A stretch of 64,000 bases of DNA from Candidatus Taylorbacteria bacterium RIFCSPHIGHO2_02_FULL_46_13 (lineage in GTDB: Bacteria > Patescibacteriota > Minisyncoccia > Phycocordibacterales > DSPV01): positions 44,977 to 108,976 of the forward strand of contig MHRQ01000020.1 of assembly GCA_001821015.1 (NCBI GenBank), read 5' to 3'. Shown in pieces: positions 1,797 through 48,367 of the stretch (its first letter is position 1; every line of letters starts with the position of its first letter). Both the position numbers and the translations under genes were made by a program. The notes below the pieces were generated by a model. It ran no database searches and had not been told where the DNA came from. It worked only from the letters and a program-made list of their open reading frames with translations.

Positions 1797-3560
1797 TTGT
1801 ATATGTATCAGAGCAAACGTCATAATATTTTAGGACTGCATTTTGGTCACGGGGCGGGGGCGGCCATCATGTGCGATGGCAAAGTGGTTGCGGATGTTGC
1901 TGAAGAGCGGTGGAATCATGTTAAACATTCCAGTGATTTGCCTCTGGCCTCCATTCGGTTTTGTCTCAAGACTGCGGGTATCTCCATTCGTGAAATTGAC
2001 GAAATTGCAGTTGCGGGGTTGGCGGTGGGGGATCAGATAGAATCTATATTTGGACAAAAAGTAGCACTACCACAGAAGCAAGCCGAGAATTTTAAAGAAA
2101 CAATTTATTTTGCGGGGAAAAAGATAGTACGGGGGTTTTTGTTCGGGAATCGCCCGCAAACAACGCTTCGGACACCCCTCTACTGTAGAGAATTTTTTCT
2201 TGATGTATTGCCTACAGTTACTTTCGTTGAACATCATCTTGCTCACGCCGCCGCTGCGTATCTCACCACAAATGATGACCGGAAGATGATTATTGCTACG
2301 GTAGATGGGGCGGGGGACTCTAAATCATCATGTATGTGGAAAGGAGAGAATGGGAAGATTGTTCCGTTAGTGAAATATGATTATACAAGCTCTATAGGCT
2401 GGTTTTACAGTAATGTGACGGAAGCTATTGGGTGGTGGCACGGAGATGGAGAAGGGAAAACTATGGGTCTGGCTCCCTATGGCGATTATAAAAAATGCAA
2501 AGGAGCGCTTGACGGATTCTATCCGCAATTCAAAAATGGAGAATTAGTGAAGCCCAGAAATTTTCCGCAGACGACAGAGTTTAAGCTTTCAGGATCAATC
2601 CACTGGCATTCTGCTGATGCAGAGGCAATTGCAAAAATGGTAAAACAATACGGAACAGAAGATATTTCTGCGGAAGCTCAGAGAATTCTGGAGGAGCAAG
2701 TGATGGAATTTGTGATGCCGTGGCTGGTTAAAGAAAATACAAAAATTTTGGCTACCTCGGGCGGCGTTTTTCTGAATGTAAAGTTGAATCAAAGAATCTG
2801 GGAGTCAGGAAAAGTGCAGTCTCATTATCCGTACCCCAACCCCGGCGACTCGGGGTTGCCTTTAGGTGCCGCGCTCTATGTTGCAAATGAAAATGGGAGT
2901 TTAGAGAAGCCTGTAGCGAACCATTTGTATTGGGGTCCAGAATATTCCAACGAAGAGATTGAAAAGATTATTAAAGGAAGGGGTTTGGCGTATCGTAAGT
3001 CTAACGATGTGTCAGCCGAAGCGGCAAAATTTTTATCAGAAGATAAAATCGTCGGCTGGTTTCAAGGGAGGATGGAGTCGGGTCCACGAGCACTGGGCAA
3101 TCGCTCTATCTTAATGAGCCCAAAAAAGGCCGAGAACAAAGATATCATAAATGCTCGAGTAAAGTTTCGTGAAGCCTTTCGGCCGTTTTGCCCGTCTTTA
3201 ATTGATGAAGCCAAAGAGAAATATTTGGTGAAAGCGCGAAAAGAGAGATTTATGGTGACTTCGTTTGATTGTAAGCCAGAACGAAGGGGCGAACTTCCTG
3301 CGGTGGTGCATGTTGATGGCACCTTGCGTCCGCAGACTGTTACCAAGGAAGATAATCCTCTATATTGGAAACTTATATCAGAATTCGGAAAATTGACTGG
3401 TACGCCAGTTGTTTTAAATACATCCATGAATAGTATGGGTGAACCTATCGCGTGTTCTCCGCGCGAAGCGATACGTTGCTTCTTTGATTCGGGAATAGAC
3501 GCCTTAATTCTTGGAGATTTTATTCTTGAAAAATCCGTCTCTCGGTCATCAAAAACGTAA
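1797..3560 (+). CDS. Carbamoyltransferase, NodU/CmcH/NovN family
   Basis: N-terminal ASKHA-like HFGHGAGAAIMCDGKVVADVAEERWNHVKHSSDLP and overall ~590 aa length are typical of O-carbamoyltransferases. Confidence 0.8.
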   Translation: MYMYQSKRHNILGLHFGHGAGAAIMCDGKVVADVAEERWNHVKHSSDLPLASIRFCLKTAGISIREIDEIAVAGLAVGDQIESIFGQKVALPQKQAENFKETIYFAGKKIVRGFLFGNRPQTTLRTPLYCREFFLDVLPTVTFVEHHLAHAAAAYLTTNDDRKMIIATVDGAGDSKSSCMWKGENGKIVPLVKYDYTSSIGWFYSNVTEAIGWWHGDGEGKTMGLAPYGDYKKCKGALDGFYPQFKNGELVKPRNFPQTTEFKLSGSIHWHSADAEAIAKMVKQYGTEDISAEAQRILEEQVMEFVMPWLVKENTKILATSGGVFLNVKLNQRIWESGKVQSHYPYPNPGDSGLPLGAALYVANENGSLEKPVANHLYWGPEYSNEEIEKIIKGRGLAYRKSNDVSAEAAKFLSEDKIVGWFQGRMESGPRALGNRSILMSPKKAENKDIINARVKFREAFRPFCPSLIDEAKEKYLVKARKERFMVTSFDCKPERRGELPAVVHVDGTLRPQTVTKEDNPLYWKLISEFGKLTGTPVVLNTSMNSMGEPIACSPREAIRCFFDSGIDALILGDFILEKSVSRSSKT

Positions 3561-3629: not shown

Positions 3630-4556
3630 TCAGGATGAGCCTCTTTTTTGCAGACGAGTTCTCCAGCCCAAGGTCCTGTAAAGTTTGCGTGTAATTCTTT
3701 TAAAAAGAGGATGACCTAAAAATAAGTCCTCGGTTTTATCGAGCAGTACCGAGATAGAGGTGTTCTTTTTCGCTTGAGTATCGGTTAAAGTCAGAATATT
3801 CCAATTTTTCTTGAGAATCGGCAGCTTCCAGGTTTCATTCTCGCGTGCATACCTGTGCACATACAATTTTTGCTTCGGGTTTTCATAGCTGAGGCAGTCA
3901 ACAAGGAACATAAAAGAAGAGTCAATCACATGTATTTCTTTCGCCCGTTCTATGATCGTGCAGTAGTCAAAGATATTTTTGGTGAGTGCCGGATCCGGAG
4001 AGAAGGTGCGATATTTCTTGTCAATAAATTTTCTCTCAATGCGGTAGTTCCTCGGCGCATCCTCGTGGAGAAATAGGTACTCACTGTTAGGCGCAACTTG
4101 ATTAAAGAAGGCCGTTTCTTTTTGAAGGTCTCTCTCAACAAAAAAGCTGTCCCACTTTTTTGTGAAAGCTACTCCAGCGATATCATAAAACTGTTTTTCA
4201 AACGGGGTTCCTGATTGTCTGTCCAGGTATTGGAATCCTATGATTTTTACTTCATCATAGCGGCTGCCGTTGAGAGCAATAAATTCTTTTACCAGCGCCT
4301 CATCTTTGGCAATAATTTCAAGATTCTTCAGATCGTGATACATGAACGATATAGAAGGATAGTTTTGGGGGGTTGAAAAGAGCGAGACTTTTTCGTATTT
4401 TTTACAATACTCTCGAATGATTCCGTGGCAAATGATATGGTCGCCCAAGCCAGATTGGTGTCGTAGCAAGATATGAGACATGGTTGTTTCTTTTACCGGG
4501 TGAATGTAACGAAGCGTTGGATTAAGGTCCCCATCTAATTTGATGGAGTATAGCAT
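3630..4556 (-). CDS. Hypothetical glycosyltransferase-like protein (true start possibly internal Met near 4481)
   Basis: ORF in track. ILLRHQSGLGDHIICHG motif resembles the GxGD motif in the N-terminus of the 36..1658 protein. No confident family assignment. Confidence 0.35.
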   Translation of the reverse strand: MLYSIKLDGDLNPTLRYIHPVKETTMSHILLRHQSGLGDHIICHGIIREYCKKYEKVSLFSTPQNYPSISFMYHDLKNLEIIAKDEALVKEFIALNGSRYDEVKIIGFQYLDRQSGTPFEKQFYDIAGVAFTKKWDSFFVERDLQKETAFFNQVAPNSEYLFLHEDAPRNYRIERKFIDKKYRTFSPDPALTKNIFDYCTIIERAKEIHVIDSSFMFLVDCLSYENPKQKLYVHRYARENETWKLPILKKNWNILTLTDTQAKKNTSISVLLDKTEDLFLGHPLFKRITRKLYRTLGWRTRLQKRGSS

Positions 4557-4605: not shown

Positions 4606-5640
4606 ATGAAGGCGGCACTATTAGAGAAAATAAACGGTCCATTGACCGTTGGAGATGTTCAGTTGACTGATTTATTATTCGGTCAGGTTTTGGTCAAGGT
4701 TTTGGTGAGTGGCATTTGCGGAGCGCAATTACAGGAGATTGCGGGCAATAAAGGTAATGCAAAATTTGTTCCGCACCTCTTAGGTCATGAAGGCTGTGGC
4801 ATCGTAGAAGCTACGGGTGTCGGAGTAACGAACGTAAAGAAAGGCGACAAAGTCATCATGCATTGGCGAAAAGGGGACGGCATTGAGTCTGATTTTCCGA
4901 GCTATGTATTTAATGGAAAAGTCATCAAGAGCGGAAAAATCACGACTTTTAATGAATATTCTATTGTTTCCGAAAATAGGATTACTCCGGTTCCAGAGGA
5001 CACCCCGAATGAGTTCTGCGCTTTGCTTGGATGTGGGCTCTCCACAGCCCTTGGCACTATAAACGATGAAGCAAATGTAAAGTTTGGTGAGAGTGTCATG
5101 ATAATAGGGGCTGGTGGCCTCGGGCTCAACCTCGTGCGGGCGGCGACACTTGCAAGTGCGCACCCCATCATCTCCGTTGATATCTACGACCATAAAAAAG
5201 AAATGGCCGAGTCGCTTGGCGCGCATCTCTACATCAACGCCGCAACACACAATATTCAGAACGAACTACAGAAAAAATTCGGTATGAGAGAGGTTGATGT
5301 AATCGTTGAAACTTCAGGAAGCAAGCAGGCGTTAGAAAATTCACTGCCTCTCTTAAGCGGTAGTGGGAGATACATCATGATCGGGCAACCTCGTCCCGGT
5401 GAAAGTGTTGAGCTTTTAAACGCCAATCATTTATTTGGCGGAGAGGGAAAAATGATTAAAGCGACACAAGGCGGCAGGTTTTCACCGAGTAGGGATATTC
5501 CGAGATATGTGAAGCTATACAAGGCGGGGATATTGAACATAGACAATATTATTACGCATCGGGTGAAGTTGGATAAGATCAATGATGCCATTGAGTTAGT
5601 TAGAAAAGGACAAGCAAGCCGCATACTCATAGAGATGTAG
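4606..5640 (+). CDS. Zinc-dependent alcohol dehydrogenase (medium-chain dehydrogenase/reductase family)
   Basis: GICGAQLQEIAGNKGNAKFVPHLLGHEGCGIVEATG (catalytic Zn site pattern) and GAGGLGL Rossmann motif. Confidence 0.8.
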   Translation: MKAALLEKINGPLTVGDVQLTDLLFGQVLVKVLVSGICGAQLQEIAGNKGNAKFVPHLLGHEGCGIVEATGVGVTNVKKGDKVIMHWRKGDGIESDFPSYVFNGKVIKSGKITTFNEYSIVSENRITPVPEDTPNEFCALLGCGLSTALGTINDEANVKFGESVMIIGAGGLGLNLVRAATLASAHPIISVDIYDHKKEMAESLGAHLYINAATHNIQNELQKKFGMREVDVIVETSGSKQALENSLPLLSGSGRYIMIGQPRPGESVELLNANHLFGGEGKMIKATQGGRFSPSRDIPRYVKLYKAGILNIDNIITHRVKLDKINDAIELVRKGQASRILIEM

Positions 5641-5644
5641 TTGT

Positions 5645-6604
5645 ATGAGTACTCCACTACTTGAAGCGTATAAAAAGATGTTTCTTATTCGGTTCACCGA
5701 GCAGGCGCTTGTAGAGTTGTATTTGAAACACAAAATAATGAGCTTTGTGCATTTTTATGTTGGTCAGGAGGCGGTCGCGGTTGGTGTGTGCAACAACTTG
5801 CGGAAGGAAGATAGGGTGCTCGGTAACCATCGCTCTCACGGCCATTACCTTGCTAAAGGAGGAGATTTACGTGCCATGATTTCTGAATTACTTGGAAAGG
5901 AAGGCGGGTCAAGCAAAGGGAAGGGTGGTTCTATGCATATGATAGATACGTCCGTGAATTTTATCGGTTCAACTCCAATTCTGGGAAGTGTGGTTCCCCT
6001 TGCGTCGGGTGCCGCATTTGAGCAGAAATATAATAAAAGGAAAGATATCACCGCAGTCTTTTTTGGAGACGGTGCGTTTGAAGAGGGTGTTGTGTACGAA
6101 ACGCTTAATCTTTCTGCGCTGTTCGCGCTTCCTTTGCTCTTTGTGGTAGAGAATAATTTATACTCGGTTAATTCTACATTGAAAGAGAGGAGGTCTGCGA
6201 ATCATAATGTTGAAAAAATTGTTACGGGGTTTGGAGTAACGTATCTCAAAGCTGACGGCAATGATTACGAGGATGTGTTTGAGAAAGCGCGGATGCTTAC
6301 AAAAGGGATTCGTGCGGGCGCAGGTCCTGCAGTGCTTGAGTGCATGACCTATCGGCATATGGCCCACAGCGCGCCTATCTTTGATGATGCGGCGGGCTAT
6401 CGGCAAGAAGATCCATTGGAGCGGCGGTTGGAGAGAGATCCGATTAAAAAGGTAAGGCGCTCCCTGTTGGAAAGTGGCATACCTGAAAACACGTTGGTAA
6501 CTTTAGAAGAGAAGATTCGTACCAGTGTGGCCGAGAGCATTCAATGTGCAGTAGATGCGCCTTATCCGAAAAAAGAAACTCTCTATACCAATTTATATGC
6601 CTGA
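5645..6604 (+). CDS. Thiamine-diphosphate-dependent dehydrogenase E1 component, alpha subunit
   Basis: FYVGQEAVAVGVC, HRSHGHYLAKGGD, GGSMHM and TPP motif GDGAFEEG...VVENN. Confidence 0.8.
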   Translation: MSTPLLEAYKKMFLIRFTEQALVELYLKHKIMSFVHFYVGQEAVAVGVCNNLRKEDRVLGNHRSHGHYLAKGGDLRAMISELLGKEGGSSKGKGGSMHMIDTSVNFIGSTPILGSVVPLASGAAFEQKYNKRKDITAVFFGDGAFEEGVVYETLNLSALFALPLLFVVENNLYSVNSTLKERRSANHNVEKIVTGFGVTYLKADGNDYEDVFEKARMLTKGIRAGAGPAVLECMTYRHMAHSAPIFDDAAGYRQEDPLERRLERDPIKKVRRSLLESGIPENTLVTLEEKIRTSVAESIQCAVDAPYPKKETLYTNLYA

Positions 6605-7637
6605 GAGAATTATTAAATATTCCGAAGCGATACAAGAAGCAACCGACCAGATGATGGGCGCTGACCCAAGAGTTTTTATTATCGGGCTTGGTGTTTCATA
6701 CCCGAAGGGCGCGGACGGGACTACGGCGGGGCTAAAGAGTACATATCCAGAACGAGTATTTGATGTCTCGGTTTCCGAACACGGATTTACCGGCATGGCG
6801 GTTGGCGCCGCGATAAACGGGCTTCACCCCATTGTTCATCATGGCAGAGTTGAGTTCAGTCTTCTTGCGGCAGATCAGATATTCACCCAAGCGGCAAAAT
6901 GGAATTATATGTTCGGAGGAGGCCATCCCGTTCCTATTGTTTTTCGGATAAATGTCGGTAGGCAGTGGGGGAACGGACCACAACACACGCAAGCGTTGTA
7001 TGCGCTCTTCGGCAATGTTCCCGGTCTTAAAGTTGTCATTCCATCGTCACCAAAAATGGCCAAAGGCCTTCTGGTGTCGGCTCTTAAGGATAAAAATCCT
7101 GTGGTTATGCTTGAGCCAAGGTGGCTTTTCAATATAAAACAGAATGTGCCTGTTCAATTATTCTCCGAGCCACTTGATAAAGCGGTTATTATAAAAGAGG
7201 GCGCTGAGGTGACGGTTGTTGCGTATGGAGACGGTCTCTTCTCGGCGAGAGAGTCGCTCGCTCTCGTGGGCGACACGGTTGACATTGAGCTCATTGACAT
7301 CGTGAGCATCAATCCGATTGATTACAAGACGATCTTCCAGTCGGTCAAAAAAACAGGGAGGTTATTATGCGTTGATACTACGAACGGGGCATTTAATGTA
7401 GGGTCCGAGGTTATCGCACAGGTAGCAAGAAATAAATCTATAAAACTTAAAAGTAATCCGGTTGCGCTTTCTTGTCCAAATGTTCCTTGTCCGACCTCAA
7501 CGGCACTCACCGAATTTTTTTATCCCACAAAAGTTGACATTGCTAACGCGCTCCTTAGCACATTCAAGAAACCCTTGATTAATCAAACGCTGAGTTTTGA
7601 GGAGCTTCACTTGGCCCCGACCGATACCATACAATGA
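6597..7637 (+). CDS. Thiamine-diphosphate-dependent dehydrogenase E1 component, beta subunit (transketolase-like pyrimidine-binding and C-terminal domains)
   Basis: MPERIIKYSEAIQEATDQMMGADPRVFIIGLGV... Start moved to ATG 6597, which overlaps the alpha-subunit stop (ATGCCTGA). Track ORF starts 6555 in the same frame. Confidence 0.75.
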   Translation: MPERIIKYSEAIQEATDQMMGADPRVFIIGLGVSYPKGADGTTAGLKSTYPERVFDVSVSEHGFTGMAVGAAINGLHPIVHHGRVEFSLLAADQIFTQAAKWNYMFGGGHPVPIVFRINVGRQWGNGPQHTQALYALFGNVPGLKVVIPSSPKMAKGLLVSALKDKNPVVMLEPRWLFNIKQNVPVQLFSEPLDKAVIIKEGAEVTVVAYGDGLFSARESLALVGDTVDIELIDIVSINPIDYKTIFQSVKKTGRLLCVDTTNGAFNVGSEVIAQVARNKSIKLKSNPVALSCPNVPCPTSTALTEFFYPTKVDIANALLSTFKKPLINQTLSFEELHLAPTDTIQ

Positions 7638-8377
7638 AAAAAATATTGGTTATCGGTGAGAGCTGTCGGGATATATTCGTATATTGCAAAGCGGAGCGTT
7701 TGGCTCCTGATGTGCCGATTCCAGTGCTGAGTGTTGTTGAACAAAAAGATAATCCCGGTATGGCAAAGAATGTTGAGCGGAACATACGAAGTATTTACAA
7801 AGCATGTAAGATTCTGACAAATCCGGGCTGGCAGAAAGTTACTAAGACGCGGTATATGCATGCGAGTAGCAATCATGCATTTCTGAGAGTTGATACGGAT
7901 CACAGAATAAAGAGAATACATATCAGACAGGCACCGCTTCATACATATGAATTAATTGCCATTTCTGATTATAATAAAGGATACTTAACCGAGGGGGACA
8001 TTAGGTATATTTGCGAAAATCATAGCAATGTCTTTATTGATACCAAAAAAGTTTTAGGTGAGTGGGCTGCAAAGGCGAAATATATCAAAATAAATAACTA
8101 TGAATACGAACGGTCAAAATCACATATATCTGATGCGCTCAAAGATAAGATAATCGTTACAAAAGGGGCTCGGGGGGCTACTTTCCAGGGTAATCTTTAT
8201 CCGGTGCCAAGGAAGGTGGAAGTAAGAGATTCTTCCGGAGCGGGGGACAGTTTCTTTGCAGCCTTGGTAGTGCATTATGCTAAGTCTGGAGATATAGAAA
8301 AGGCAATAACATTTGCGAATACCTGCGCCTCTACTGTTGTTCAGTTGAAGGGAGTCTCAGTTATCGTCGAGCGTTGA
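7634..8377 (+). CDS. PfkB-family carbohydrate kinase (ribokinase-like; short form resembling heptose-7-phosphate kinase domain)
   Basis: C-terminal DSSGAGDSFFAAL (GAGD anion-hole motif). ATGA overlap with upstream gene. Confidence 0.65.
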   Translation: MKKILVIGESCRDIFVYCKAERLAPDVPIPVLSVVEQKDNPGMAKNVERNIRSIYKACKILTNPGWQKVTKTRYMHASSNHAFLRVDTDHRIKRIHIRQAPLHTYELIAISDYNKGYLTEGDIRYICENHSNVFIDTKKVLGEWAAKAKYIKINNYEYERSKSHISDALKDKIIVTKGARGATFQGNLYPVPRKVEVRDSSGAGDSFFAALVVHYAKSGDIEKAITFANTCASTVVQLKGVSVIVER

Positions 8378-8414
8378 AGATCTGGGGAACAAAGAAGGTA
8401 AGAAGATATACCAA

Positions 8415-9581
8415 ATGTCAGACCCATTAATCAATACATTGTATCTCATATTTCACGGGCGTTTCCCCGGAGAGAAGGCCGCGGCCGTGTTCGCGGCCGA
8501 GAGCGCGCAAGCCTTCGCCGATAACGGTTTTTCGGTAACGGTTGTCGTGCCTCGCCGCCTCGCTCGGTTGAAAGAATCGGTGGAACAGTGTTACGGTATC
8601 AAAGGCAACTTTAGAACCGTGTTTGTTCCCATACTTGATTTATTTGAGATCCCGCTCGTCAAGACAATGGCGTTTAAAATAAGCTATAGTACATTTTCCA
8701 TTTCAACATTCTTCTATATCTTATTCAGTGCAAAAAGACGCCACACCGTCATCTATTCAAATGAATCGCTCCCCCTGCTACTCCTTTCGTTTTTCTTTCC
8801 GAACACGTTTTATGAAGTGCACGATTTTCCTCGCCACTCGCTCTTACATCGCATCCTCCTGTCTTTGGTGAAGGGTGTGATAGTAACTAACCGTTCAAAG
8901 AAAGGAGAGCTTGCACGACAGTTTGGCCTTGCCGATAGAAAACTCTTCTATGAACCCAACGCTGTGGATGTGGAAGGATTTGCTAAGGCGATAGGCGTTA
9001 CGGTTCGCAAGAAGCTTAACCTTTCTCCGGGTACGGTGCTTGTCGGGTACGCCGGAGCACTGAAGACCATGGGGATGGAGAAGGGAATTGGGCTTTTGTT
9101 AGAGGCTGTTGCTTCCTTGCCACCGCGTTTTCGTCTGCTTATTGTCGGAGGGAATACTGATGACGTGTCTGCGTACAAAGCAGTATCTCGCACGCTTCAC
9201 ATAAGCGATCGGGTTGCATTTGTTGGGTGGGTGCGTCATAGCGAGGTGAGTGAATATTTGGCGGCCTGTGACATCCTCGTCGCTCCATTTCCTGACACAC
9301 CCCATTATCGGTTTCTCATGTCTCCGCTAAAAATTTTTGAGTATATGGCCGCGGGGAAGCCGATCGTGGCATCGCGTCTGGAGTCTATCACGGAGTTACT
9401 CAATGATGATTCGGCATATTTGGTAACACCCGGCGATGGTAAATTTCTTGCACAAGGGATTCAGACAGCCGCTTCTTCGCCAGATGCGCGCACAAAGGCA
9501 CTACATGCTAAGGAGTTGGTACAAAATCATTCTTGGAATAAACGAGCGAGGCGAATCATTGACTTTTTTGGTAAATATTGA
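8415..9581 (+). CDS. Glycosyltransferase family 4 (GT-B, Glycos_transf_1-type)
   Basis: C-terminal ILVAPFPDTPHYRFLMSPLKIFEYMAAGKPIVASRL matches the E-x7-E GT4 motif region. Confidence 0.75.
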   Translation: MSDPLINTLYLIFHGRFPGEKAAAVFAAESAQAFADNGFSVTVVVPRRLARLKESVEQCYGIKGNFRTVFVPILDLFEIPLVKTMAFKISYSTFSISTFFYILFSAKRRHTVIYSNESLPLLLLSFFFPNTFYEVHDFPRHSLLHRILLSLVKGVIVTNRSKKGELARQFGLADRKLFYEPNAVDVEGFAKAIGVTVRKKLNLSPGTVLVGYAGALKTMGMEKGIGLLLEAVASLPPRFRLLIVGGNTDDVSAYKAVSRTLHISDRVAFVGWVRHSEVSEYLAACDILVAPFPDTPHYRFLMSPLKIFEYMAAGKPIVASRLESITELLNDDSAYLVTPGDGKFLAQGIQTAASSPDARTKALHAKELVQNHSWNKRARRIIDFFGKY

Positions 9582-9596
9582 TACAGTTTTTCTCGT

Positions 9597-10169
9597 ATGA
9601 ACAAACAATCGGACACGCTTCAAGTAGTTTTAGCACGCAACATCAAAGCAGTGGTGTTTGACGGTGATGGTGTTATATTCACCAGTCAGGTCTTTTTCGA
9701 TGCCGCTGGCGAGGCTCTTAAAGAACGCAGTTTCATTGATGGGCAAGGTATTTCACTTTTGCGTTCGGCAGGTGTACAGGTGGCGTTGATAACGGCAGAA
9801 AAGTCAGCGTTTGCCGAGATCTTTGTGGCCAAGATGAACAGCTTGCCTTCCGTTAAATCCGGTATGTGGCAACCGATGGAGCTGGTGACTGACGTTATCG
9901 GTCAAGGGAAAGTTGATGCAGTAGAGAAGTGGATCAAGTCTCGAAATCTTTCATGGGACGAGTGCGCGTACATGGGTGATGACATTGGCGATTACAAAGT
10001 GATGGAGAAAGTAGCTTTTAGAGCATGCCCGATAGGGGCGGAAGAGGCCATCAAATCCTTTTCGCATTTTGTTGCTACGCGTGCAGGCGGACAAGGGGCT
10101 GTGCGAGATTTATGTAATTTCATTTTGAAAGCGAAGGGGATTGATCAGCTTTCTCTTGATTTGCGCTAG
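9597..10169 (+). CDS. HAD-superfamily phosphatase, KdsC family (KDO-8-P / nonulosonate-9-P phosphatase-like)
   Basis: AVVFDGDGVIF (DxD nucleophile motif), MGDDIGDY, GGQGAVRD tail typical of KdsC. Confidence 0.7.
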   Translation: MNKQSDTLQVVLARNIKAVVFDGDGVIFTSQVFFDAAGEALKERSFIDGQGISLLRSAGVQVALITAEKSAFAEIFVAKMNSLPSVKSGMWQPMELVTDVIGQGKVDAVEKWIKSRNLSWDECAYMGDDIGDYKVMEKVAFRACPIGAEEAIKSFSHFVATRAGGQGAVRDLCNFILKAKGIDQLSLDLR

Positions 10170-10173
10170 CGAA

Positions 10174-11193
10174 ATGACATCAAAGAAAAATAATTTCTGG
10201 CATGACAAACGCGTGCTTGTTACAGGAGCAACCGGCATGGTCGGTTTTTGGCTGGTGAAGGATTTAATTGCTGCGGGTGCGCGCGTTGTCGCGTTTGTGC
10301 GCGGAAGCGATTCACCGTCTGTTTTTTCGTACTCCGGAGATTTTCGAGGTGTTTTTCTGGTAAAGGGGAATGTAGAAGATTTTGCGAGCCTTGAGAGAGC
10401 AATCTCGTCGTACAAGGTGGAGACGGTTTTCCATCTAGCTGCGCAGTCCATTGTGGGCGTCGCGCACCAAAACCCCTTACCGACATTTGAAACGAATATT
10501 CGCGGCACCTACAATCTGCTTGAAGCATGCCGTCTTCATGGCGATATAGTGAAACGAGTTGTCATTGCCTCGAGTGAAAAAGCCTACGGCCTGCACGAAA
10601 CGCTGCCGTTTTCGGAACGCACGCCTTTGACCGGCAGACATCCCTACGAAGTATCAAAAAGTTGTGCAGACCTCATGGCTCAAGCGTATCATCATACGTA
10701 CGGTTTGCCGGTTGCTCTGTTGCGAAGCGGAAATATTTTCGGCGGAGCTGATCTTAATTGGGGTCGCCTCGTTCCTCACACGATTCGTAGTTTTCTTAAA
10801 AATCAGCGACCAATCATCCGTAGCGAAGGCCGGTTTGTGCGTGATTTTTTGCGTGATTACATGTACGTCAAAGATATCAGCCATTGTTACATGAAGATGG
10901 CAGAGGCTCTTTCCGATAAGAAAATACATGGCCAGGCCTTCAACGTAAGCCTTGAGCATCCTCTGACGGTTCTTGAGCTTGTCGGGATGATTCAGAAACT
11001 CATGAAGTGTAGTCACCTCACACCCAAGGTGCAGACGATCGCGCCGGGCGATATCCATTCGCGATATGTAAGTGCATCCAAAGCGCATACCGTTCTTGGC
11101 TGGAAGCCGAAATTTACCTTGGAGAAAGGTCTCGAGGAAACCATTGCGTGGTATCGCGATTATCTTTCTACGCATCCCGATTCGCTGGTTTAA
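10174..11193 (+). CDS. CDP-glucose 4,6-dehydratase-like extended SDR
   Basis: NNFWHDKRVLVTGATGMVGFWLV matches the characteristic RfbG N-terminus (FW-x-K-V-VTG-TGF-G-WL). YxxxK present. Start set to the Met after the track's 10141 start, which overlaps the upstream gene. Confidence 0.65.
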   Translation: MTSKKNNFWHDKRVLVTGATGMVGFWLVKDLIAAGARVVAFVRGSDSPSVFSYSGDFRGVFLVKGNVEDFASLERAISSYKVETVFHLAAQSIVGVAHQNPLPTFETNIRGTYNLLEACRLHGDIVKRVVIASSEKAYGLHETLPFSERTPLTGRHPYEVSKSCADLMAQAYHHTYGLPVALLRSGNIFGGADLNWGRLVPHTIRSFLKNQRPIIRSEGRFVRDFLRDYMYVKDISHCYMKMAEALSDKKIHGQAFNVSLEHPLTVLELVGMIQKLMKCSHLTPKVQTIAPGDIHSRYVSASKAHTVLGWKPKFTLEKGLEETIAWYRDYLSTHPDSLV

Positions 11194-11389: not shown

Positions 11390-11959
11390 ATGGGAACACT
11401 TGAACAGCAATCTAGAATACGAACCAGAAATACCAAGATTACACGCGCAATCATCACAACCTTAGCAGTTGCCGTTGCGGGTGCGCTCAATCCCCAAGGA
11501 CTAGTGCGAGGTGTATTGAAATCTCTGAATGCCCCCAATAACAAACGACTTTCGTCAGAGAACGCTATTTATGCGGCGCGCCGACGTTTAGCCAAGCGGG
11601 GATTGATTGTATACGAAGGTAATTTTTGGAAGATAACTGAGAGGGGGAAGCGTGAGCTTGAGATTATGCAAATCGGCAGTGTTCCTCTACCTCGTCCGAA
11701 AAAGTGGGATAAGAAGTGGAGGATACTAATTTTTGATATTAGAGAAGAAAAAAAGGTGACGCGGGACAAAGTTCGGCGCACGTTGGGTTCGATTGGTTTC
11801 CATCGGTTGCAAGACAGTGTGTGGGTTTACCCGTATGACTGCGAAGATCTGATCGCGCTTTTGAAGGCCGATTTCAAGATAGGGAAGGATTTACTCTACA
11901 TCATCGCGGACGAGATAGAGAATGATGTCTTTCTTAAAAAGGAGTTTCAGCTTGGCTAG
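11390..11959 (+). CDS. Putative PaaX-family-like transcriptional regulator (winged HTH plus C-terminal W...FDI...R..VRR.L...GF..LQ.SVW domain)
   Basis: C-terminal WDKKWRILIFDIREEKKVTRDKVRRTLGSIGFHRLQDSVWVYP resembles the PaaX C-terminal domain. Family call from memory of the motif only. Confidence 0.45.
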   Translation: MGTLEQQSRIRTRNTKITRAIITTLAVAVAGALNPQGLVRGVLKSLNAPNNKRLSSENAIYAARRRLAKRGLIVYEGNFWKITERGKRELEIMQIGSVPLPRPKKWDKKWRILIFDIREEKKVTRDKVRRTLGSIGFHRLQDSVWVYPYDCEDLIALLKADFKIGKDLLYIIADEIENDVFLKKEFQLG

Positions 11960-19839: not shown

Positions 19840-19871
19840 ACGCCCGTTCTCCGCACGTGTCTTTTTTGAGT

Positions 19872-24082: not shown

Positions 24083-24094
24083 GGTAAGTCTTTT

Positions 24095-24253: not shown

Positions 24254-24295
24254 AAATCCTCGAATAGTCGGGTTTTTTTCAGTCATGGGGTTTTT

Positions 24296-24988: not shown

Positions 24989-24995
24989 ACGATAG

Positions 24996-28261: not shown

Positions 28262-29608
28262 TTAGCTTGCCTTCTTGTGTTGCATATTCCACGCGGTTGG
28301 TATGAGAAAATATCCTCTCGTACCGCTTTTTGAGGCTAGCTCATGATATTCTTTCGGGCTATGAACCGTTACCGTCTTCTGGACAGGTGTGTCGGCAAAA
28401 TAATCTTTACTTCTGAAACAGAAGAGTTTTATCTCTATTAGATATTCGCCCGCCATGAAGAGCCGAGCGGGGATCAAAAGGTTTGCGTTATAGTGCCCCG
28501 CCGTGATTTCCTCAAGCTCCGGTTCCCAATCTTGAACAAATGAGCGCGAGATAAGCGTCCCCGAGCTGTTCTTAATTAACACGCCGACCCGAAATGATTG
28601 CAGGTTGCGAGCGATTGAAAAACCGATATGTATTCCAAAGGGGTCGCTACCATCAATGCTCTCTGTTTGCTTCCCGCGTTGGGTGATGGAGAATTCTGTA
28701 AGCGTCACGTTTTCGTCGGTCATAGGAAGGGGGAGCGGCGTGTCATGTTGCGGTCCGCCTTTGAGGTACAGCTCTATGATTTTATCCGTATCGCCGATCG
28801 CCGAAATCTTTCCTTGTTCAAGGAGTACGGTCGTTTTGCATAAACGAGAGACCGCATCCATGTTATGGCTTACGAAGAGGATCGTGCGGCCCTGTGTTTT
28901 TGTGACCTCATCCATTTTTCCGAGACATTTTTTCTGAAAATCCGCATCGCCGACCGCCAGCACTTCATCCACTAAGAGGATATCCGGTTCAAGATGAGCG
29001 GCGACGGAAAATGCCAGTCGCACATACATGCCGCTTGAGTAGCGTTTTACCGGCGTATCTATAAAACGCTCAATGCCAGAGAATGCGACAATCTTGTCAA
29101 AGTTCTTTTCAATTTGTCGCTTAGTCATTCCAAGGATAGCTCCGTTTAAGAATATATTCTCACGGCCAGTGAGCTCCGGATGAAATCCGGTCCCGACCTC
29201 AAGGAGTGACACTACTTTTCCTTTAATTTTTATCTCTCCTTCCGTAGGCGGGGTGATGCCCGTGAGGATTTTTAGCAAGGTTGATTTTCCCGCGCCATTT
29301 CTCCCGATAATGCCGATGACCTCTCCTTTCTTAACATCAAGATTGATATTTTTGAGCGCCCAGAACTCCTCCTTCGTTTCTCGGGCGAGGATTTTTTTCA
29401 TCTGGTTTTTTATGGTTTGGAATGGGGATAAGAGTGCGTACGTGATATTGTCTCGCAAGGCCGTATACCTCGCCGATCTATGTGCAATACGGTATTTCTT
29501 TGAGATATTTTTTATTGATATAACCGTTTCTATCCCGTTAGAGACAGGAAGCGCTTCGCTCGCCTGGCGGGATTGTGGTGGGGGTAATTTTTCTTTTATG
29601 TGAGTCAT
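28262..29608 (-). CDS. ABC transporter ATP-binding protein, Wzt/TagH type with C-terminal extension (possible glycan-binding domain)
   Basis: Walker A GIIGRNGAGKSTLLKIL, signature YSSGMYVRLAF, Walker B ILLVDE. ~200-aa C-terminal extra domain. Confidence 0.8.
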   Translation of the reverse strand: MTHIKEKLPPPQSRQASEALPVSNGIETVISIKNISKKYRIAHRSARYTALRDNITYALLSPFQTIKNQMKKILARETKEEFWALKNINLDVKKGEVIGIIGRNGAGKSTLLKILTGITPPTEGEIKIKGKVVSLLEVGTGFHPELTGRENIFLNGAILGMTKRQIEKNFDKIVAFSGIERFIDTPVKRYSSGMYVRLAFSVAAHLEPDILLVDEVLAVGDADFQKKCLGKMDEVTKTQGRTILFVSHNMDAVSRLCKTTVLLEQGKISAIGDTDKIIELYLKGGPQHDTPLPLPMTDENVTLTEFSITQRGKQTESIDGSDPFGIHIGFSIARNLQSFRVGVLIKNSSGTLISRSFVQDWEPELEEITAGHYNANLLIPARLFMAGEYLIEIKLFCFRSKDYFADTPVQKTVTVHSPKEYHELASKSGTRGYFLIPTAWNMQHKKAS

Positions 29609-29674
29609 ATCGTTTATTTTAAAATTTCAGTGCTACCGTAGCGAAGCGGTCTCTAACGGGATCCATATATTTTT

Positions 29675-30502
29675 CTATACTATATCCGCAAAGATACGTT
29701 CTGTTTTTTTAAAGACAAAAACACCGATAATGAATAGCACGATGCCAATGAGCGCTGATGTTGCCAGCGCTGTCCAGTCAAGCGAGCCTGTGCCTAAAAG
29801 GCCGATGCGCGCGTTATTGATGACTCCGGTCATGGGATTGAGATACAGTATCCATGCATATTTGCCGGCTATGGAGGTAGGGTAAATGACAGGTGTTATG
29901 AAGATGAGTAACTGCAAAAAAAATGGGAGCACGTATCGGACATCGCGATATCGCACATTAATTGATGACAGTATTAATCCAGTACCGACTGCGGGTAAAA
30001 ATGCCAACAGTAACAGTAGCGGTACGAGTAAGACTCCCACAATTGTGGGGAGGATCTGGTAGTACACCATCAGTCCTGCCATAATGAGCGCCGCGAAGGA
30101 GAAATCAACCAACTTGGTTACGGTATCCGCTAGGGGGAGGAGCAGACGCGGAAAGTAGACTTTGGTAACGATTGAAGCATTTGAAATTAGCGTGTTGGAG
30201 CTTTCTGACAGGGAGCTGGTAAAGAATTGCCAGAATAAAAGACCGCTATAGACAAACACCGGATAGGGGACGCCTTCGGAAGGAAGGTGTGCGAGTTTTC
30301 CGAAGATTACGGTAAACACCACCATGGTGATGAATGGTTGGAACACTGCCCACATGATTCCGACGACGGTTTGCTTATAGCGTACTTTAATGTCGCGCCA
30401 TGCAAAAAAGTAGAGTAGTTCTCGATACTCCCACAGCTCTGTAAGGTCAGCGGTACTGAACGATTTCTTCGGTCGGATGATTTTTGTATATACGGTGGAC
30501 AT
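29675..30502 (-). CDS. ABC-2 type polysaccharide export permease (Wzm-like)
   Basis: Six hydrophobic segments; position immediately downstream of Wzt-like ATPase. Confidence 0.75.
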   Translation of the reverse strand: MSTVYTKIIRPKKSFSTADLTELWEYRELLYFFAWRDIKVRYKQTVVGIMWAVFQPFITMVVFTVIFGKLAHLPSEGVPYPVFVYSGLLFWQFFTSSLSESSNTLISNASIVTKVYFPRLLLPLADTVTKLVDFSFAALIMAGLMVYYQILPTIVGVLLVPLLLLLAFLPAVGTGLILSSINVRYRDVRYVLPFFLQLLIFITPVIYPTSIAGKYAWILYLNPMTGVINNARIGLLGTGSLDWTALATSALIGIVLFIIGVFVFKKTERIFADIV

Positions 30503-33174: not shown

Positions 33175-33696
33175 TTACGGGTCCAAGACTCCGCCCTGCG
33201 GTTTAATACTCTTTATTTTTTCAATAATCTTTGTGGTTGAAATTGCTTCAAACTCCGGTGGGCAAGCTCGCTCAAGTATAACGAGCTTTGTTGGAGAACT
33301 TTTCAGCAGTTCACGTCGCTTCGGTATATCAAATGCGTCGGTAGTGATGACGTAGTAATCTGGCTTAAGCGTGCTGAACACTGAATTGAGTCCACTTAAA
33401 AGGTCCGTACTGAGAAGATTTTGATCAAGAAGAGCGTACGTCACTGATTTTATAGAGGAAACCATCTTAAGCCGTATATGTTGGTTTAAAACAGGGCGTT
33501 CCGCTCCTTTATATATGCGCAAAATGGAATCATTTCCGACCATTACGACAAGAATATCGCCGTATTTTTTACAATCTTCAAAGAAAAGAACATGGCCGGC
33601 ATGTGTCAGGTCAAAGCTACCAGAGCAAAATACAATCTTCTCATCCTTATGTTTCTCTCTGATAGAAGAGAGCTCTTTACCATCAATGATACTCAT
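33175..33696 (-). CDS. Cytidylyltransferase-like nucleotidyltransferase (HxGH family; glycerol-3-P cytidylyltransferase/RfaE-domain-II-like)
   Basis: KIVFCSGSFDLTHAGHVLFFEDCKKYGDILVVMVGND. Start set to internal Met MSIIDG; track ORF to 33777. Confidence 0.6.
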   Translation of the reverse strand: MSIIDGKELSSIREKHKDEKIVFCSGSFDLTHAGHVLFFEDCKKYGDILVVMVGNDSILRIYKGAERPVLNQHIRLKMVSSIKSVTYALLDQNLLSTDLLSGLNSVFSTLKPDYYVITTDAFDIPKRRELLKSSPTKLVILERACPPEFEAISTTKIIEKIKSIKPQGGVLDP

Positions 33697-33933
33697 GATA
33701 GGTATGTAGTATAGGACAGGCGGGCCTTCTTTAAAAGAGTGTGTGAAAATAATTGCAGGTATGCTTTTGTATAACACGACCGCGCGAGAAAGTCTTCTCT
33801 GTCTGTAGTGCGCAGGGATTTGACTGTGGGTTGCAAGAAATGGTAGGTTGACTCCAGATTTGCATGTTGTTGTGCAACATTAGATTGATGGTTCAACTAA
33901 CACACCAACGATAACTACCCAACAAAAAGGTGG

Positions 33934-36381: not shown

Positions 36382-36398
36382 GCCGAGATATATGTTCT

Positions 36399-48331: not shown

Positions 48332-48367
48332 TTGCAAAAAGATAGCAAAGAAAGTTATCATGCCAGG

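Follow-up and report, generated by a model that had tools for sequence, protein, structure and literature searches.

What does a pair of genes resembling the E1 subunits of pyruvate dehydrogenase (PDH) do in a bacterial glycan locus? The question is raised by a 64-kb stretch of DNA (here called the window) from a Candidatus Taylorbacteria (Patescibacteria) genome, where a zinc-dependent alcohol dehydrogenase (ADH) gene is followed by E1 alpha and E1 beta genes. A preliminary description had assigned these genes, together with four downstream ones, to a route for a branched sugar. Its observation was confirmed by our analysis, and its interpretation was partly supported.

Gene order and junctions

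The ADH gene, both E1 genes and the four downstream open reading frames were found where they had been described, with the expected domains (Table 1). The ADH and E1 reading frames are intact and closely spaced, and the ATG start of E1 beta at 6597 agrees with independent gene calls. As read from the sequence, a gap of 4 nt separates ADH from E1 alpha, the two E1 genes overlap by 8 nt, and the E1 beta stop and the start of the PfkB kinase share an ATGA. Translational coupling had been proposed for the whole series; the PfkB/GT4 and GT4/HAD spacings (37 and 15 nt) are close but no more. The HAD/SDR gap measures 4 nt, provided that the SDR starts at the ATG at 10174. The minus-strand gene upstream of ADH is also part of the ADH-E1 unit.

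Table 1. Features of the window
Feature	Position	Strand	Evidence or remark
Unannotated 308-aa protein, GT9-like predicted fold	3630..4556	-	AF2 model and PDB fold matches; no Pfam or NCBIfam match
Medium-chain Zn-dependent ADH, 344 aa	4606..5640	+	ADH_N and ADH_zinc_N
E1 alpha, thiamine-diphosphate binding	5645..6604	+	PF00676, 223 bits
E1 beta, pyrimidine-binding and C-terminal domains, 346 aa	6597..7637	+	Transket_pyr and Transketolase_C
PfkB kinase, 247 aa, RfaE-domain-I-like	7634..8377	+	TIGR02198, 107 bits
GT4 glycosyltransferase	8415..9581	+	Pfam Glyco_trans_1_4 / Glycos_transf_1
KdsC-like HAD phosphatase	9597..10169	+	NF007019 KdsC, 90.7 bits
Extended SDR, 4,6-dehydratase-like	10174..11193 (ORF from 10141)	+	TIGR02622, 195.7 bits
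NeuB/CMP-sugar genes, neighbouring cluster	25655-27279		
Wzt/Wzm-type ABC exporter	28262..30502	-	ABC_tran and Wzt_C; ABC2_membrane
RfaE-domain-II-like nucleotidyltransferase	33175..33777	-	TIGR02199, 73.6 bits
NudE-like ADP-sugar hydrolase	33934-34491		Adjoins RfaE-domain-II-like gene

Motifs and phylogeny of the E1 pair

In E1 alpha, the thiamine-binding subunit of an E2-less, PDH-E1-like heterotetramer, the GDG...NN thiamine motif and the 'AHS' histidine can be recognized; E1 beta retains both catalytic residues, Glu in 'SEHGF' and His in 'PQHTQ'. The nearest named families were the PDH E1 subunits, yet the NCBIfam equivalog cut-offs were not reached by E1 alpha (315.6 with TIGR03182; cut-off, 393.85) or by E1 beta (245.7 with PRK09212; cut-off, 321). 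More than 100 homologues of E1 alpha share 65-73% identity with it, and all of those with an organism name come from Patescibacteria MAGs. In the C-terminal domain of E1 beta, R236 and E261, which are invariant in E2-linked proteins, are substituted, and a Glu of this domain that is invariant in E2-linked E1 beta is substituted in all three E2-less clades.

No E2 or E3 gene was detected in the 64 kb (Pfam and dedicated E2/E3 HMMs), in a further 6 kb upstream (L080), or, with the dedicated HMMs, within 10 kb on either side of 44 related loci of the CPR clade. The same HMMs did find E2/E3 in three positive-control loci (L053, L068, and L069). These results support the earlier view that the ADH-E1 genes are no part of a 2-oxoacid dehydrogenase complex.

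A comparison with acetoin and pyruvate dehydrogenase E1s, of the kind that had been suggested, also set the pair apart from E2-linked E1s. In a tree of concatenated E1 alpha and E1 beta (663 columns; neighbor joining [NJ] alone; 100 bootstraps), the CPR clade was recovered with 100% support, and the window pair fell outside the clade (97%) formed by a small set of E2-linked references. A further split in this NJ tree, with 85% support, placed the CPR clade together with an E2-less clade encoded beside HddA, HddC, Gmd-like and DegT genes, against the E2-linked proteins and another E2-less clade. By this measure, the window pair appears to group with the E2-less pairs of GDP-heptose-type clusters.

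The module and its heptose neighbors in related loci

The unit conserved among the related loci consists of ADH, E1 alpha and E1 beta, usually with the short RfaE-I-like kinase, and the divergently encoded GT9-fold protein. Identities across relatives are 58-73% for E1 alpha, 61-81% for E1 beta and 55-85% for the ADHs adjoining E1 pairs (60-85% without L042), in Kaiser-, Vogel-, Yonath-, Lipton-, Nomura-, Adlerbacteria and others. Neighbors were counted in 24 loci that span at least 18 kb: ADH was present in 24/24, a heptose kinase in 18, a homologue of the divergent protein or a GT9 in 22, an RfaE-II adenylyltransferase in 12, GmhA or a small WbuC-like cupin (apparent alternatives) in 14, and at least one heptose gene in all 24. 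The module is widespread in the ultra-small Patescibacteria (Paceibacteria/Parcubacteria lineages), in a heptose and surface-glycan context. One E1 subclade (L029, L032, and L040) is accompanied by an aminotransferase and ATP-grasp ligases and has no glycan genes. The CPR E1 clade is therefore not confined to sugar chemistry, which counts against the function proposed below.

The divergent protein belongs to a family of 235 members, all from Patescibacteria, and 23 of the 44 loci encode a homologue (43-63% identity) next to the module. Its AF2 model (pLDDT, 85.5) matched best the folds of WaaF (1psw), TibC (4rap/4rb4), a GT9 protein (3tov) and WaaC (probability, 1.0; TM, 0.35-0.46), with TagF only at rank 32 (probability, 0.6). 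The protein is thus predicted to adopt a GT-B fold like that of the GT9 ADP-heptose heptosyltransferases. In part of the family, the protein is joined to a second domain, either a GmhB-like heptose-bisphosphate phosphatase or GT2.

The PfkB kinase, which had been named as a partner of the E1 pair, does usually accompany it in related loci, and its assignment can be refined. It has the GAGD motif, and RfaE domain I was its best match, ahead of ribokinase (44 bits) but short of the cut-off of 345, suggesting a relative of D-glycero-beta-D-manno-heptose-7-phosphate kinase. Homologues with 55-70% identity directly follow E1 beta in 25 of the 44 loci. In L027, L033 and L047, GmhA and the RfaE-II adenylyltransferase (in L027 also GmhB) have no kinase other than this short PfkB next to them, and in L018, L022 and L024 a full-length RfaE-I kinase (267 bits) is found instead. 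Heptose families in related loci score 213 bits for GmhA, 177 for GmhB, 267 for RfaE-I and 175 for RfaE-II; GT9 proteins also occur, and HldD-like epimerases (223-259 bits) adjoin the module in L008, L027, L037 and L047. In the window, the RfaE-II-like nucleotidyltransferase falls under its model's cut-off but matches an HMM (c7) built from the adenylyltransferases adjoining the module in 20 of the 44 loci; it is a candidate activating enzyme for a heptose-type sugar 1-phosphate. No GmhA or GmhB was found within 70 kb at the window locus, a point against the proposal below. Wzt/Wzm homologues with 40-69% identity to those of the window occur in related loci, and many relatives encode an exporter of this type next to the module.

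The ADH shows the catalytic zinc ligands C38/H61/C143 and GxGxxG, lacks the structural-zinc lobe, and carries D193, which suggests NAD as the cofactor; all its matches to NCBIfam models were far under their cut-offs. It had been put forward as a possible reductase of the new branch. Pau7 provides a precedent for such a reduction, but the ADH lies outside the reductase families known for acetyl branches, which also weighs against our proposal.

The other downstream genes were not supported as partners. None of the GT4, HAD and SDR genes is conserved with the E1 pair at the equivalent position in any related locus. The GT4 is window specific (27-39% identity only to GT4s of other loci). The HAD phosphatase, with a DGDG motif, matches KdsC and KDN-9-P phosphatase (84 bits) under both cut-offs and has no homologue among the related loci; it may serve the NeuB/CMP-transferase genes rather than the E1 module. 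The SDR, whose best match misses its cut-off of 278, is only 24-39% identical to SDRs elsewhere; in the Taylorbacteria genome it might provide a keto-sugar acceptor. Extended SDRs of any kind were present in only 15 of the 24 long loci, and several of these are true GDP-mannose dehydratases or HldD-like epimerases. The keto acceptor usually comes from a 4,6-dehydratase, and the lack of such an enzyme as a constant neighbor of the module also speaks against the proposal.

Proposed function, alternatives and known systems

We propose that ADH, E1 alpha and E1 beta are the central part of a module that modifies sugars for a surface glycan, in which the E1 pair would be an alphaKADH2/AviB-type thiamine diphosphate (ThDP) carboligase with no need of E2/E3. 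We give this reading about an even chance of being right. The pair would decarboxylate pyruvate to hydroxyethylidene-ThDP and transfer the acetyl-anion equivalent to the carbonyl of a heptose-derived activated sugar. This acceptor would come from an RfaE-II-like adenylyltransferase and the RfaE-I-like kinase encoded next to the pair, with GmhA, GmhB and HldD also taking part in relatives, and the reaction would yield a C2-branched or C2-extended (nine-carbon) sugar. The NAD-type ADH may carry out a coupled redox step, either oxidizing a sugar hydroxyl to the acceptor carbonyl or reducing the new acetyl group to 1-hydroxyethyl, and the GT9-fold protein would pass the product to a glycan exported by Wzm/Wzt. 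In this scheme we infer pyruvate as the donor, the acceptor and its site of attack, the direction in which the ADH works and the nucleotide carrier. If the proposal is true, the E1 pair modifies sugar instead of burning pyruvate.

The C2 unit might instead be added at the sugar-phosphate level, which we consider unlikely. In a reaction like that of DXP synthase or transketolase, pyruvate, hydroxypyruvate or a ketose would donate C2 to an aldose phosphate, and the resulting unusual higher ketose phosphate would pass through isomerase, kinase, phosphatase and adenylyltransferase, comparable to the transaldolase-started lincomycin octose route, with the ADH supplying or trimming substrate. The coupling of the kinase to E1 beta, the frequent GmhA or cupin gene and a D-2-hydroxyacid dehydrogenase (hydroxypyruvate reductase/PGDH-like) adjoining the module in L012 and L028 are in line with this, and E1-like enzymes with ketose donors are known from the QncN type. 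However, pyruvate would yield a 1-deoxy-2-ketose, from which a GmhA-type isomerase cannot make an aldose; the ADP-heptose gene set of relatives is already complete without E1 and ADH; and the genomes that carry the sister E2-less clade are large, so that sedoheptulose-7-P should not be in short supply, and there the pair sits with NDP-sugar-level enzymes. It is quite unlikely that the SDR makes a CDP- or dTDP-4-keto-6-deoxyhexose, to which the E1 pair adds a branch that the ADH then reduces, the yersiniose-like route of the preliminary description. The SDR shares the operon with the E1 pair, with CDP-glucose 4,6-dehydratase as its top NCBIfam match and S-E-K and YxxxK motifs, and the known acceptors that AviB-type enzymes branch are 4-keto-6-deoxyhexoses (PMC12247030). 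Yet all related loci lack the SDR, GT4 and HAD at the equivalent position, and the window contains no glucose-1-P cytidylyltransferase (only 57 bits, against a cut-off of 300, for the transferase at 48332-49054) and no 3-dehydrase equivalog (DegT scores 150 bits with RfbH against 423, and aminotransferase models score better); moreover, the yersiniose enzyme YerE belongs to a different ThDP superfamily (PMC12247030).

Two readings leave sugar carbon skeletons aside. In one, very unlikely in our estimate, pyruvate and an aldehyde would give an acyloin that the ADH reduces to a diol, followed by phosphorylation by PfkB, TagD/RfaE-II-like activation with a nucleotide and linkage to the glycan through a teichoic-acid-like phosphodiester. 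Consistent with this, the ADH has a class I/III ADH-like catalytic site, glycerol-3-P cytidylyltransferase is a further match of nucleotidyltransferases of the c7 type (49.6 bits with a locus representative; 52.6 bits with the window protein at 52825-53301), Exo_endo_phos proteins adjoin the module in 14 of the 44 loci, and the exporter is TagGH-like. Against it, heptose enzymes are the best-scoring models for both kinase and nucleotidyltransferase, the predicted fold of the tightly linked transferase is that of GT9 heptosyltransferases and not of TagF, LicD or Stealth, and we know of no substituent of this kind. The least probable reading is ordinary energy metabolism placed in a glycan locus by chance, either a pyruvate or acetoin dehydrogenase with remote E2/E3 or an E1 pyruvate decarboxylase working with the ADH in ethanol or 2,3-butanediol fermentation. 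Patescibacteria are fermenters, PDH E1s are the closest named families, and true acetoin operons combine E1 alpha and beta with an MDR 2,3-butanediol dehydrogenase (L074). This reading is opposed by the absence of E2/E3 within 10 kb of 44/44 loci, the E1 scores under equivalog cut-offs, the position outside the E2-linked clade, the substituted R236 and E261, the mere 26% identity of the ADH to Enterococcus 2,3-butanediol dehydrogenase, and the heptose and glycan context of 24/24 long loci, with the GT9-fold partner and the overlapping kinase gene.

The proposed carboligase would have counterparts in a recognized class of pyruvate-using sugar C2-branching enzymes, alphaKADH2, in line with the preliminary description. 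The class includes AviB1/AviB2 (avilamycin), Pau11/Pau12 (paulomycin), the aldgamycin and kosinostatin enzymes, and KbDH-alpha/beta (kibdelomycin), which transfers C2 from pyruvate to a keto-sugar in vitro; C2 transfer in aldgamycin, avilamycin and paulomycin, with ketoreduction afterwards, rests on genetics or proposals (PMC12247030, PMC4753412). The likeness to the module is one of gene organization: split PDH-E1-like subunits, without E2/E3, in a sugar cluster, often followed, in the known cases, by an oxidoreductase able to process the acetyl branch (PMC12247030, PMC4753412). However, the alphaKADH2 pairs reside in actinomycete antibiotic clusters with a dTDP-hexose 4,6-dehydratase pathway, whereas the module lies in a Patescibacteria glycan locus with Wzm/Wzt export, ADP-heptose genes and a GT9-fold transferase, and Pau7 is an aldo-keto reductase, in contrast to the MDR Zn-ADH found here. 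In yersiniose A (YerE/YerF) and erwiniose (ErwE) biosynthesis, a ThDP enzyme likewise acylates a keto sugar nucleotide from a 2-oxoacid in an O-antigen-type cluster, followed by an NAD(P)H reductase (PMC12247030, PMC9306805). YerE is a single polypeptide of the decarboxylase (acetolactate-synthase-like) superfamily, unlike the E1 pair, and yersiniose-type CDP-3,6-dideoxyhexose genes are absent from the window.

The window pair has its fold, ThDP motif, catalytic Glu and catalytic His in common with AcoA/AcoB and PdhA/PdhB (33-40% identity), and its gene order behind the ADH recalls bdh-acoAB (L074), but those enzymes are E2/E3 linked, whereas the window pair forms part of a separate clade in a glycan context. 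The enzymes of ADP-L-glycero-beta-D-manno-heptose synthesis and transfer (GmhA, GmhB, RfaE-I, RfaE-II, HldD, and GT9) are recognizable around the module in relatives; compared with them, the window's shortened kinase and its transferase, in which no GT9 signature was detected at the sequence level, either are divergent members of these families or merely resemble them. To our knowledge, neither a ThDP enzyme nor an MDR ADH belongs to any known heptose pathway. In the NJ tree, the nearest non-CPR relatives (85% bootstrap) are the uncharacterized E1 pairs in HddA/HddC/Gmd-like/DegT/radical-SAM clusters (L054, L057, L059, L070, and others) of Nitrospirota, Rhodospirillales, Microcoleus and delta-proteobacteria. 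They differ from the window pair in sequence (36-43% identity only), in having no ADH partner, and in their GHMP kinase and NTP-transferase (GDP-heptose type), always with a dehydratase-like SDR and an aminotransferase; like the window pair, they are E2-less and adjoin heptose-nucleotide genes.

The operon and its glycan locus

The ORFs of the preliminary description were recovered with the domain content claimed for them by ORF listing and by Pfam and NCBIfam searches, and independent public gene calls for the same contig gave identical genes, with an E1 beta of 346 aa. Reading the junctions from the sequence, we observed a 4-nt gap between the alcohol dehydrogenase (ADH) and E1 alpha, an 8-nt overlap between E1 alpha and E1 beta, and an ATGA overlap joining the E1 beta stop to the PfkB start; the gap between the HAD phosphatase and the short-chain dehydrogenase (SDR) is 4 nt if the latter starts at the ATG at 10174. 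Promoter-like sites around the operon were not clearly more numerous than in shuffled controls (20 versus 13.6 ± 3.7, about 1.7 sd), terminator-like sites showed no excess (9 versus 9.2 ± 3.1), and Rfam and tRNA scans of the 64-kb window returned no match.

Features of the window with their coordinates
Feature	Position	Strand	Assignment and remarks
Carbamoyltransferase	1797-3560	+	NodU/CmcH type
unk3630	3630-4556	-	unannotated protein, divergent from ADH
Medium-chain Zn alcohol dehydrogenase (ADH)	4606-5640	+	Pfam/NCBIfam
E1 alpha	5645-6604	+	Pfam, E1_dh, 223 bits
E1 beta	6597-7637	+	Pfam, Transket_pyr and Transketolase_C
PfkB kinase	7634-8377	+	Pfam/NCBIfam
GT4 glycosyltransferase	8415-9581	+	Pfam
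KdsC-like HAD phosphatase	9597-10169	+	NCBIfam
Extended SDR	10141/10174-11193	+	top match CDP-glucose 4,6-dehydratase, 196 bits, below the 278 cut-off; ATG at 10174
PaaX_M/Cas2-like domain protein	11390-11959	+	directly after the operon
Carbamoyltransferase	15894-17759	-	NodU/CmcH type
DegT aminotransferase	18724-20043		glycan locus
Ulosonic-acid branch	23249-27279	-	short NeuB-like synthase (290 aa, below the NeuB and PseI cut-offs), PseF-like CMP-sugar synthetase, MptE-like protein, methyltransferases
RfaE-domain-II/TagD-like nucleotidyltransferase	within 33175-34491		adjoined by a NudE-like ADP-sugar hydrolase
B12-binding radical-SAM enzyme, then Wzy_C protein	34840-38849	+	edge of glycan locus; Wzy_C protein of 754 aa with TPR tail
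NTP_transferase	48332-49054		the only one in the window
RfaE-domain-II/TagD-like nucleotidyltransferase	52825-53301		
Long ORF	57830-64000	+	more than 2,064 codons, from about 57.8 kb off the window end

The pair has the architecture of 2-oxoacid dehydrogenase E1s, and the catalytic residues of ADH, E1 alpha and E1 beta, as read from the sequence, are all intact. ADH carries the Zn ligands C38, H61 and C143, a GxGxxG motif and an NAD-type Asp, and is devoid of the structural-zinc lobe. E1 alpha shows the GDG...NN thiamine motif and the His of 'AHS', and E1 beta the cofactor-activating Glu in 'SEHGF' and the active-site His in 'PQHTQ'; the ThDP motif and these three residues were invariant in all 67 aligned E1 pairs.

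The window comes from Candidatus Taylorbacteria (Patescibacteria), and one of the proteins neighbouring the operon is 100% identical to an NCBI entry under this name. According to the Pfam and NCBIfam assignments of the window, the operon belongs to a glycan locus spanning about 35 kb. This locus also encodes FkbM-type and other methyltransferases, GT2, GT11, GT8-like and GT10-like transferases, an FdtA-like cupin accompanying the DegT aminotransferase, a NeuB-like synthase with a CMP-sugar synthetase, a GDP-mannose 4,6-dehydratase and a Wzm/Wzt ABC exporter, and it is followed by the housekeeping genes MurB, SecA, DHODH, Obg and GatB. The two carbamoyltransferases suggest O-carbamoylated sugars, and homologues of them were seen beside the E1 module (ADH, E1 alpha and E1 beta) in three of the compared loci (L027, L028 and L045). 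The HAD phosphatase, which is also KDN-9-P-phosphatase-like, may serve the ulosonic-acid branch rather than the E1 module. The PaaX_M/Cas2-like protein, with homologues (34-36% identity) near the module in L037 and L065, may be a regulator. At the edge of the locus, the Wzy_C protein is O-antigen ligase-like. Giant surface proteins are typical of Patescibacteria, and the long ORF at the window end probably encodes one.

An E1 pair outside the canonical dehydrogenases

No lipoyl acyltransferase (E2) or dihydrolipoamide dehydrogenase (E3) was found in the 64-kb window, using Pfam on the larger ORFs and dedicated HMMs, or in a further 6 kb upstream. The E2/E3 HMMs had zero matches within 10 kb on either side of 44 loci carrying Patescibacteria E1 pairs (the CPR clade), and as a control the same HMMs did match three other loci (L053, L068 and L069) and all plasmid references. 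Against the canonical families, E1 alpha scored 315.6 with TIGR03182 (equivalog cut-off 393.85) and E1 beta 245.7 with PRK09212 (cut-off 321), both below threshold.

As E2-linked references we used seven E1 pairs for which a following E2, alone or together with E3, could be demonstrated: the Acinetobacter and Enterococcus acetoin operons, Sphingobium pdhAB, and pairs from Rhizobium, Desulfotalea, Streptomyces and Vescimonas. The window E1 proteins are 32-40% identical to them. In a neighbor-joining tree of concatenated E1 alpha and E1 beta (67 pairs, 663 columns, 100 bootstraps), the E2-linked group (bootstrap 97%) took in three genome-scan loci bearing E2/E3 and excluded the CPR clade, which was itself recovered at 100%. 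Two further E2-less clades also reached 100%, namely clade 2, from Omnitrophota and Elusimicrobiota and adjoining radical-SAM genes, and clade 3, from Nitrospirota, Rhodospirillales, delta-proteobacteria, Verrucomicrobia and others. The split of CPR plus clade 3 from the E2-linked group plus clade 2 had a bootstrap of 85%. The closest E1 alpha homologues bearing an organism name were all from Patescibacteria MAGs, and in a tblastn search of a plasmid collection (637 records) the actinomycete matches inspected (L075, L082 and L083) were E2-linked.

Two residues of the E1 beta C-terminal domain, Arg 236 and Glu 261 in window numbering, are invariant or nearly so in the E2-linked set. The CPR clade has other residues at both positions, and substitution of the Glu extends to all three E2-less clades, a pattern that may reflect loss of E2 docking. 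The preliminary description had named two observations that would speak against it, a nearby E2/E3 complex and a position of the pair inside the pyruvate or acetoin dehydrogenases. Since E2 and E3 are absent from the window and from the 44 loci, and the CPR clade falls outside the E2-linked group, neither applies, as far as this could be tested.

Neighbours of clade 3 pairs include HddA-like kinase, HddC-like nucleotidyltransferase, Gmd-like dehydratase, DegT and B12-radical-SAM genes. Clusters of this kind, in which the HddA-like kinase is of the GHMP type and the radical-SAM enzymes bind B12, were observed around non-CPR E2-less pairs (L054, L057, L059, L060, L062-L064 and L070) in Nitrospirota, Rhodospirillales, Microcoleus and delta-proteobacteria; they appear to represent an uncharacterised modified-GDP-heptose pathway.

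Conserved neighbours in Patescibacteria

We compared loci containing E1 alpha, 67 of them from a scan of a single genome for each species and others from metagenome contigs, by all-against-all clustering and HMM searches, with HMM-based gene calls, as simpler ORF calling missed E1 alpha in some loci. About 45 loci were from Patescibacteria (E1 alpha identity 55-73%), and 44 were used in counts. The succession ADH, E1 alpha, E1 beta was conserved, with ADH present in all 24 loci of at least 18 kb. Directly after E1 beta there is usually a homologue of the short PfkB kinase (25 of 44 loci), and one of unk3630 is usually divergent from ADH (23 of 44); Exo_endo_phos proteins and FkbM methyltransferases also recur beside the module. 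By clustering, the GT4, the KdsC-like HAD and the dehydratase-like SDR of the window had no counterparts at these positions in the other loci. An extended SDR was present in 15 of the 24 long loci, several of these being HldD-like or true Gmd. In L001-L003, public calls give a 593-aa 'ADH' ORF (8193-9974), the N-terminal 250 codons of which overlap a hidden transferase gene; a homologue of unk3630 lies there on the opposite strand (8019-8837), and the apparent ADH fusion was rejected as an annotation artefact.

The recurrent neighbours of the module are ADP-heptose pathway genes, as judged from family profile scores; in each of the 24 long loci, one or more genes of heptose type lie within 10 kb. 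In related loci we found GmhA (213 bits), GmhB (177 bits, cut-off 178), RfaE-II adenylyltransferase (175 bits, cut-off 181.5), HldD-like 6-epimerases (223-259 bits, cut-off 274.6) and several families of GT9 heptosyltransferases, and a full-length RfaE-I kinase (267 bits) in loci without the short PfkB. The window PfkB has TIGR02198 (RfaE domain I) as its top match, at 107 bits against a cut-off of 345. As the short PfkB is the sole kinase beside GmhA and RfaE-II in L027, L033 and L047 (in L027 with GmhB as well), we read it as a putative heptose-7-phosphate kinase in these organisms, although its score falls below the cut-off. Profile searches found neither GmhA nor GmhB anywhere in the window, which does hold the two RfaE-domain-II/TagD-like nucleotidyltransferases.

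The divergent protein unk3630 had no Pfam match, including to PF01075 (Glyco_transf_9), and no NCBIfam match. It belongs to a family of 235 members, all from Patescibacteria. The top PDB matches of an AlphaFold model built on 64 homologues (mean pLDDT 85.5) were the GT9 ADP-heptose heptosyltransferases WaaF, TibC, Veillonella GT9 and WaaC, with a Foldseek probability of 1.0 and TM scores of 0.35-0.46; such modest values are to be expected when a GT-B protein has two domains. In part of the family a C-terminal domain resembles the heptose-1,7-bisphosphate phosphatase GmhB (153 and 144 bits), which supports a link to heptose, and other members have a GT2 domain. Comparison by hhalign with the GT9 families of the loci and with c9, another family clustered from them, gave no significant sequence link (probability below 3% for the GT9 families), so that it is the predicted fold and the genomic context that would place unk3630 in GT9.

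Some members of the family occur in other settings. In a subclade without ADH (L029, 5.8-13.2 kb; L032, 10-17.1 kb; and L040), E1 alpha and E1 beta are followed by a class I/II aminotransferase of 520-540 aa, and two ATP-grasp ligases, a NUDIX protein and a D-2-hydroxyacid dehydrogenase are present in loci without glycan genes. This looks like a different small-molecule pathway, possibly to an amino-acyloin or a peptide. Thus, the chemistry of CPR-family E1s has evidently been recruited into more than one pathway, which calls for caution with all readings. L018, from Candidatus Liptonbacteria, has two E2-less pairs within 10 kb, one in an ADH module that immediately follows GmhA and a 4,6-dehydratase-like SDR, and the other preceded by a different SDR. 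In the delta-proteobacterial L045, sister to the CPR clade, E1 alpha (9323-10945) is extended at its N-terminus by about 230 aa that match no Pfam family, and the pair is flanked by a GT9 heptosyltransferase and, in place of ADH, a classical short-chain dehydrogenase.

Possible chemistry and known carboligases

We consider it about evenly balanced whether the pair is an E2-less carboligase following the logic of the alphaKADH2 enzymes on a heptose-derived sugar of the ADP-heptose type, with redox coupled through the Zn-ADH. The acceptor is most likely such a sugar and not a CDP-hexose. We infer donor, acceptor, regiochemistry and ADH direction as follows. The E1 pair would take a C2 unit from pyruvate by decarboxylation and attach it to a carbonyl of the heptose-derived sugar. 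In the window, the dehydratase-like SDR of the operon is a candidate source of an NDP-keto-sugar acceptor. As no 4,6-dehydratase is a constant neighbour, the ever-present NAD-type Zn-ADH may make this carbonyl by oxidizing a sugar alcohol to an aldehyde or ketone; alternatively or additionally, it could reduce the new acetyl group. Addition to a C7 aldehyde would lengthen the chain to a nine-carbon sugar, and addition to a ring ketone would give an acetyl- or hydroxyethyl-branched heptose. More tentatively, we regard as possible a lineage-wide Patescibacteria route to an undescribed heptose-derived nine-carbon sugar. Here the medium-chain Zn-ADH, and not a 4,6-dehydratase, would oxidize a hydroxyl of ADP-heptose, for example the C7 primary alcohol, the E2-less E1-like enzyme would then add the pyruvate-derived unit to give a C2-extended or C2-branched product, and the GT9-like transferase family would install it on the cell surface.

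Coupling of E1 beta to a kinase, together with the D-2-hydroxyacid dehydrogenases of a few loci, could also indicate DXS- or transketolase-like C-C bond formation on sugar phosphates upstream of an isomerase and the kinase. However, a pyruvate-derived 1-deoxyketose cannot isomerise to an aldose and the heptose pathway is already complete without an E1 step, and we find this explanation unlikely. Quite unlikely, in our view, is the CDP-4-keto-6-deoxyhexose, yersiniose-like route of the preliminary description. The dehydratase-like SDR inside the operon speaks for it, but this gene, like the GT4 and HAD also named as partners, is not conserved with the E1 pair in related loci. Furthermore, glucose-1-P cytidylyltransferase and 3-dehydrase are both absent from the window: its NTP_transferase scored 57 bits against a cut-off of 300 for the former, and for the latter (RfbH/DdhC type) the DegT protein scored 150 against 423 for RfbH, with aminotransferase models scoring higher. 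The yersiniose-forming enzyme YerE is moreover of a different ThDP superfamily. What stood of the earlier reading is thus an E2-less carboligase in a glycan pathway, while its specific partners and the yersiniose analogy did not hold.

Formation of a small diol or acyloin phosphate substituent would be a very improbable role for the module. The least probable is ordinary pyruvate or acetoin metabolism, or ethanol or butanediol fermentation, against which stand the glycan and heptose context, the placement in the tree and the sub-threshold family scores; at 26% identity to butanediol dehydrogenase, ADH was also ruled out as its orthologue. A phosphonate route combining PEP mutase, an E1 decarboxylase and ADH was rejected, there being no PEP mutase or phosphonate gene among the annotated neighbours.

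In the open-access literature we found no description of this module in Patescibacteria or of E1-type ThDP enzymes tied to heptose pathways. The kind of enzyme is already known; what appears new is the host lineage and the scale of conservation, and likewise the heptose context, the medium-chain ADH partner and the GT9-fold transferase family. A large, strongly conserved E2-less E1 clade lies in Patescibacteria surface-glycan loci, always with heptose genes, and a related E2-less clade occupies heptose clusters in several further phyla. Episymbiotic bacteria probably attach to their hosts through surface glycans. If confirmed, the chemistry would establish higher-carbon or branched heptoses as a new class of sugars on the surfaces of such bacteria and account for the 'orphan PDH E1' genes that make metabolic reconstruction confusing in Patescibacteria. 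The enzyme toolbox would then also gain robust carboligases, a compact heptose kinase and a GT9-like transferase family so far without annotation. A nine-carbon sugar, if true, would mean that higher-carbon sugars are built by a new biosynthetic logic, and it would be a signature surface sugar for these ultra-small episymbionts.

To our knowledge, sugar-branching E1-type thiamine enzymes occur in just a few actinomycete antibiotic pathways, and a single one of them has been assayed in vitro. The alphaKADH2 enzymes, an established but thinly characterised class, are stand-alone E1 alpha/beta pairs that decarboxylate pyruvate and transfer its C2 unit to a keto sugar; the acetyl-branched products then undergo reduction, methylation or transamination (PMC12247030, PMC4753412). 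C2 transfer from pyruvate was shown in vitro for KbDH-alpha/beta, the aldgamycin enzyme is backed by feeding and knockout experiments, and AviB1/B2 and Pau11/12 were assigned by proposal (PMC12247030, PMC4753412). The window pair shares with these enzymes the occurrence of E1 alpha and beta in a glycan cluster devoid of E2 and E3. In contrast, YerE is a single-chain ThDP enzyme of the decarboxylase/ALS superfamily (PMC12247030), whereas the window enzyme is an E1 alpha/beta pair.
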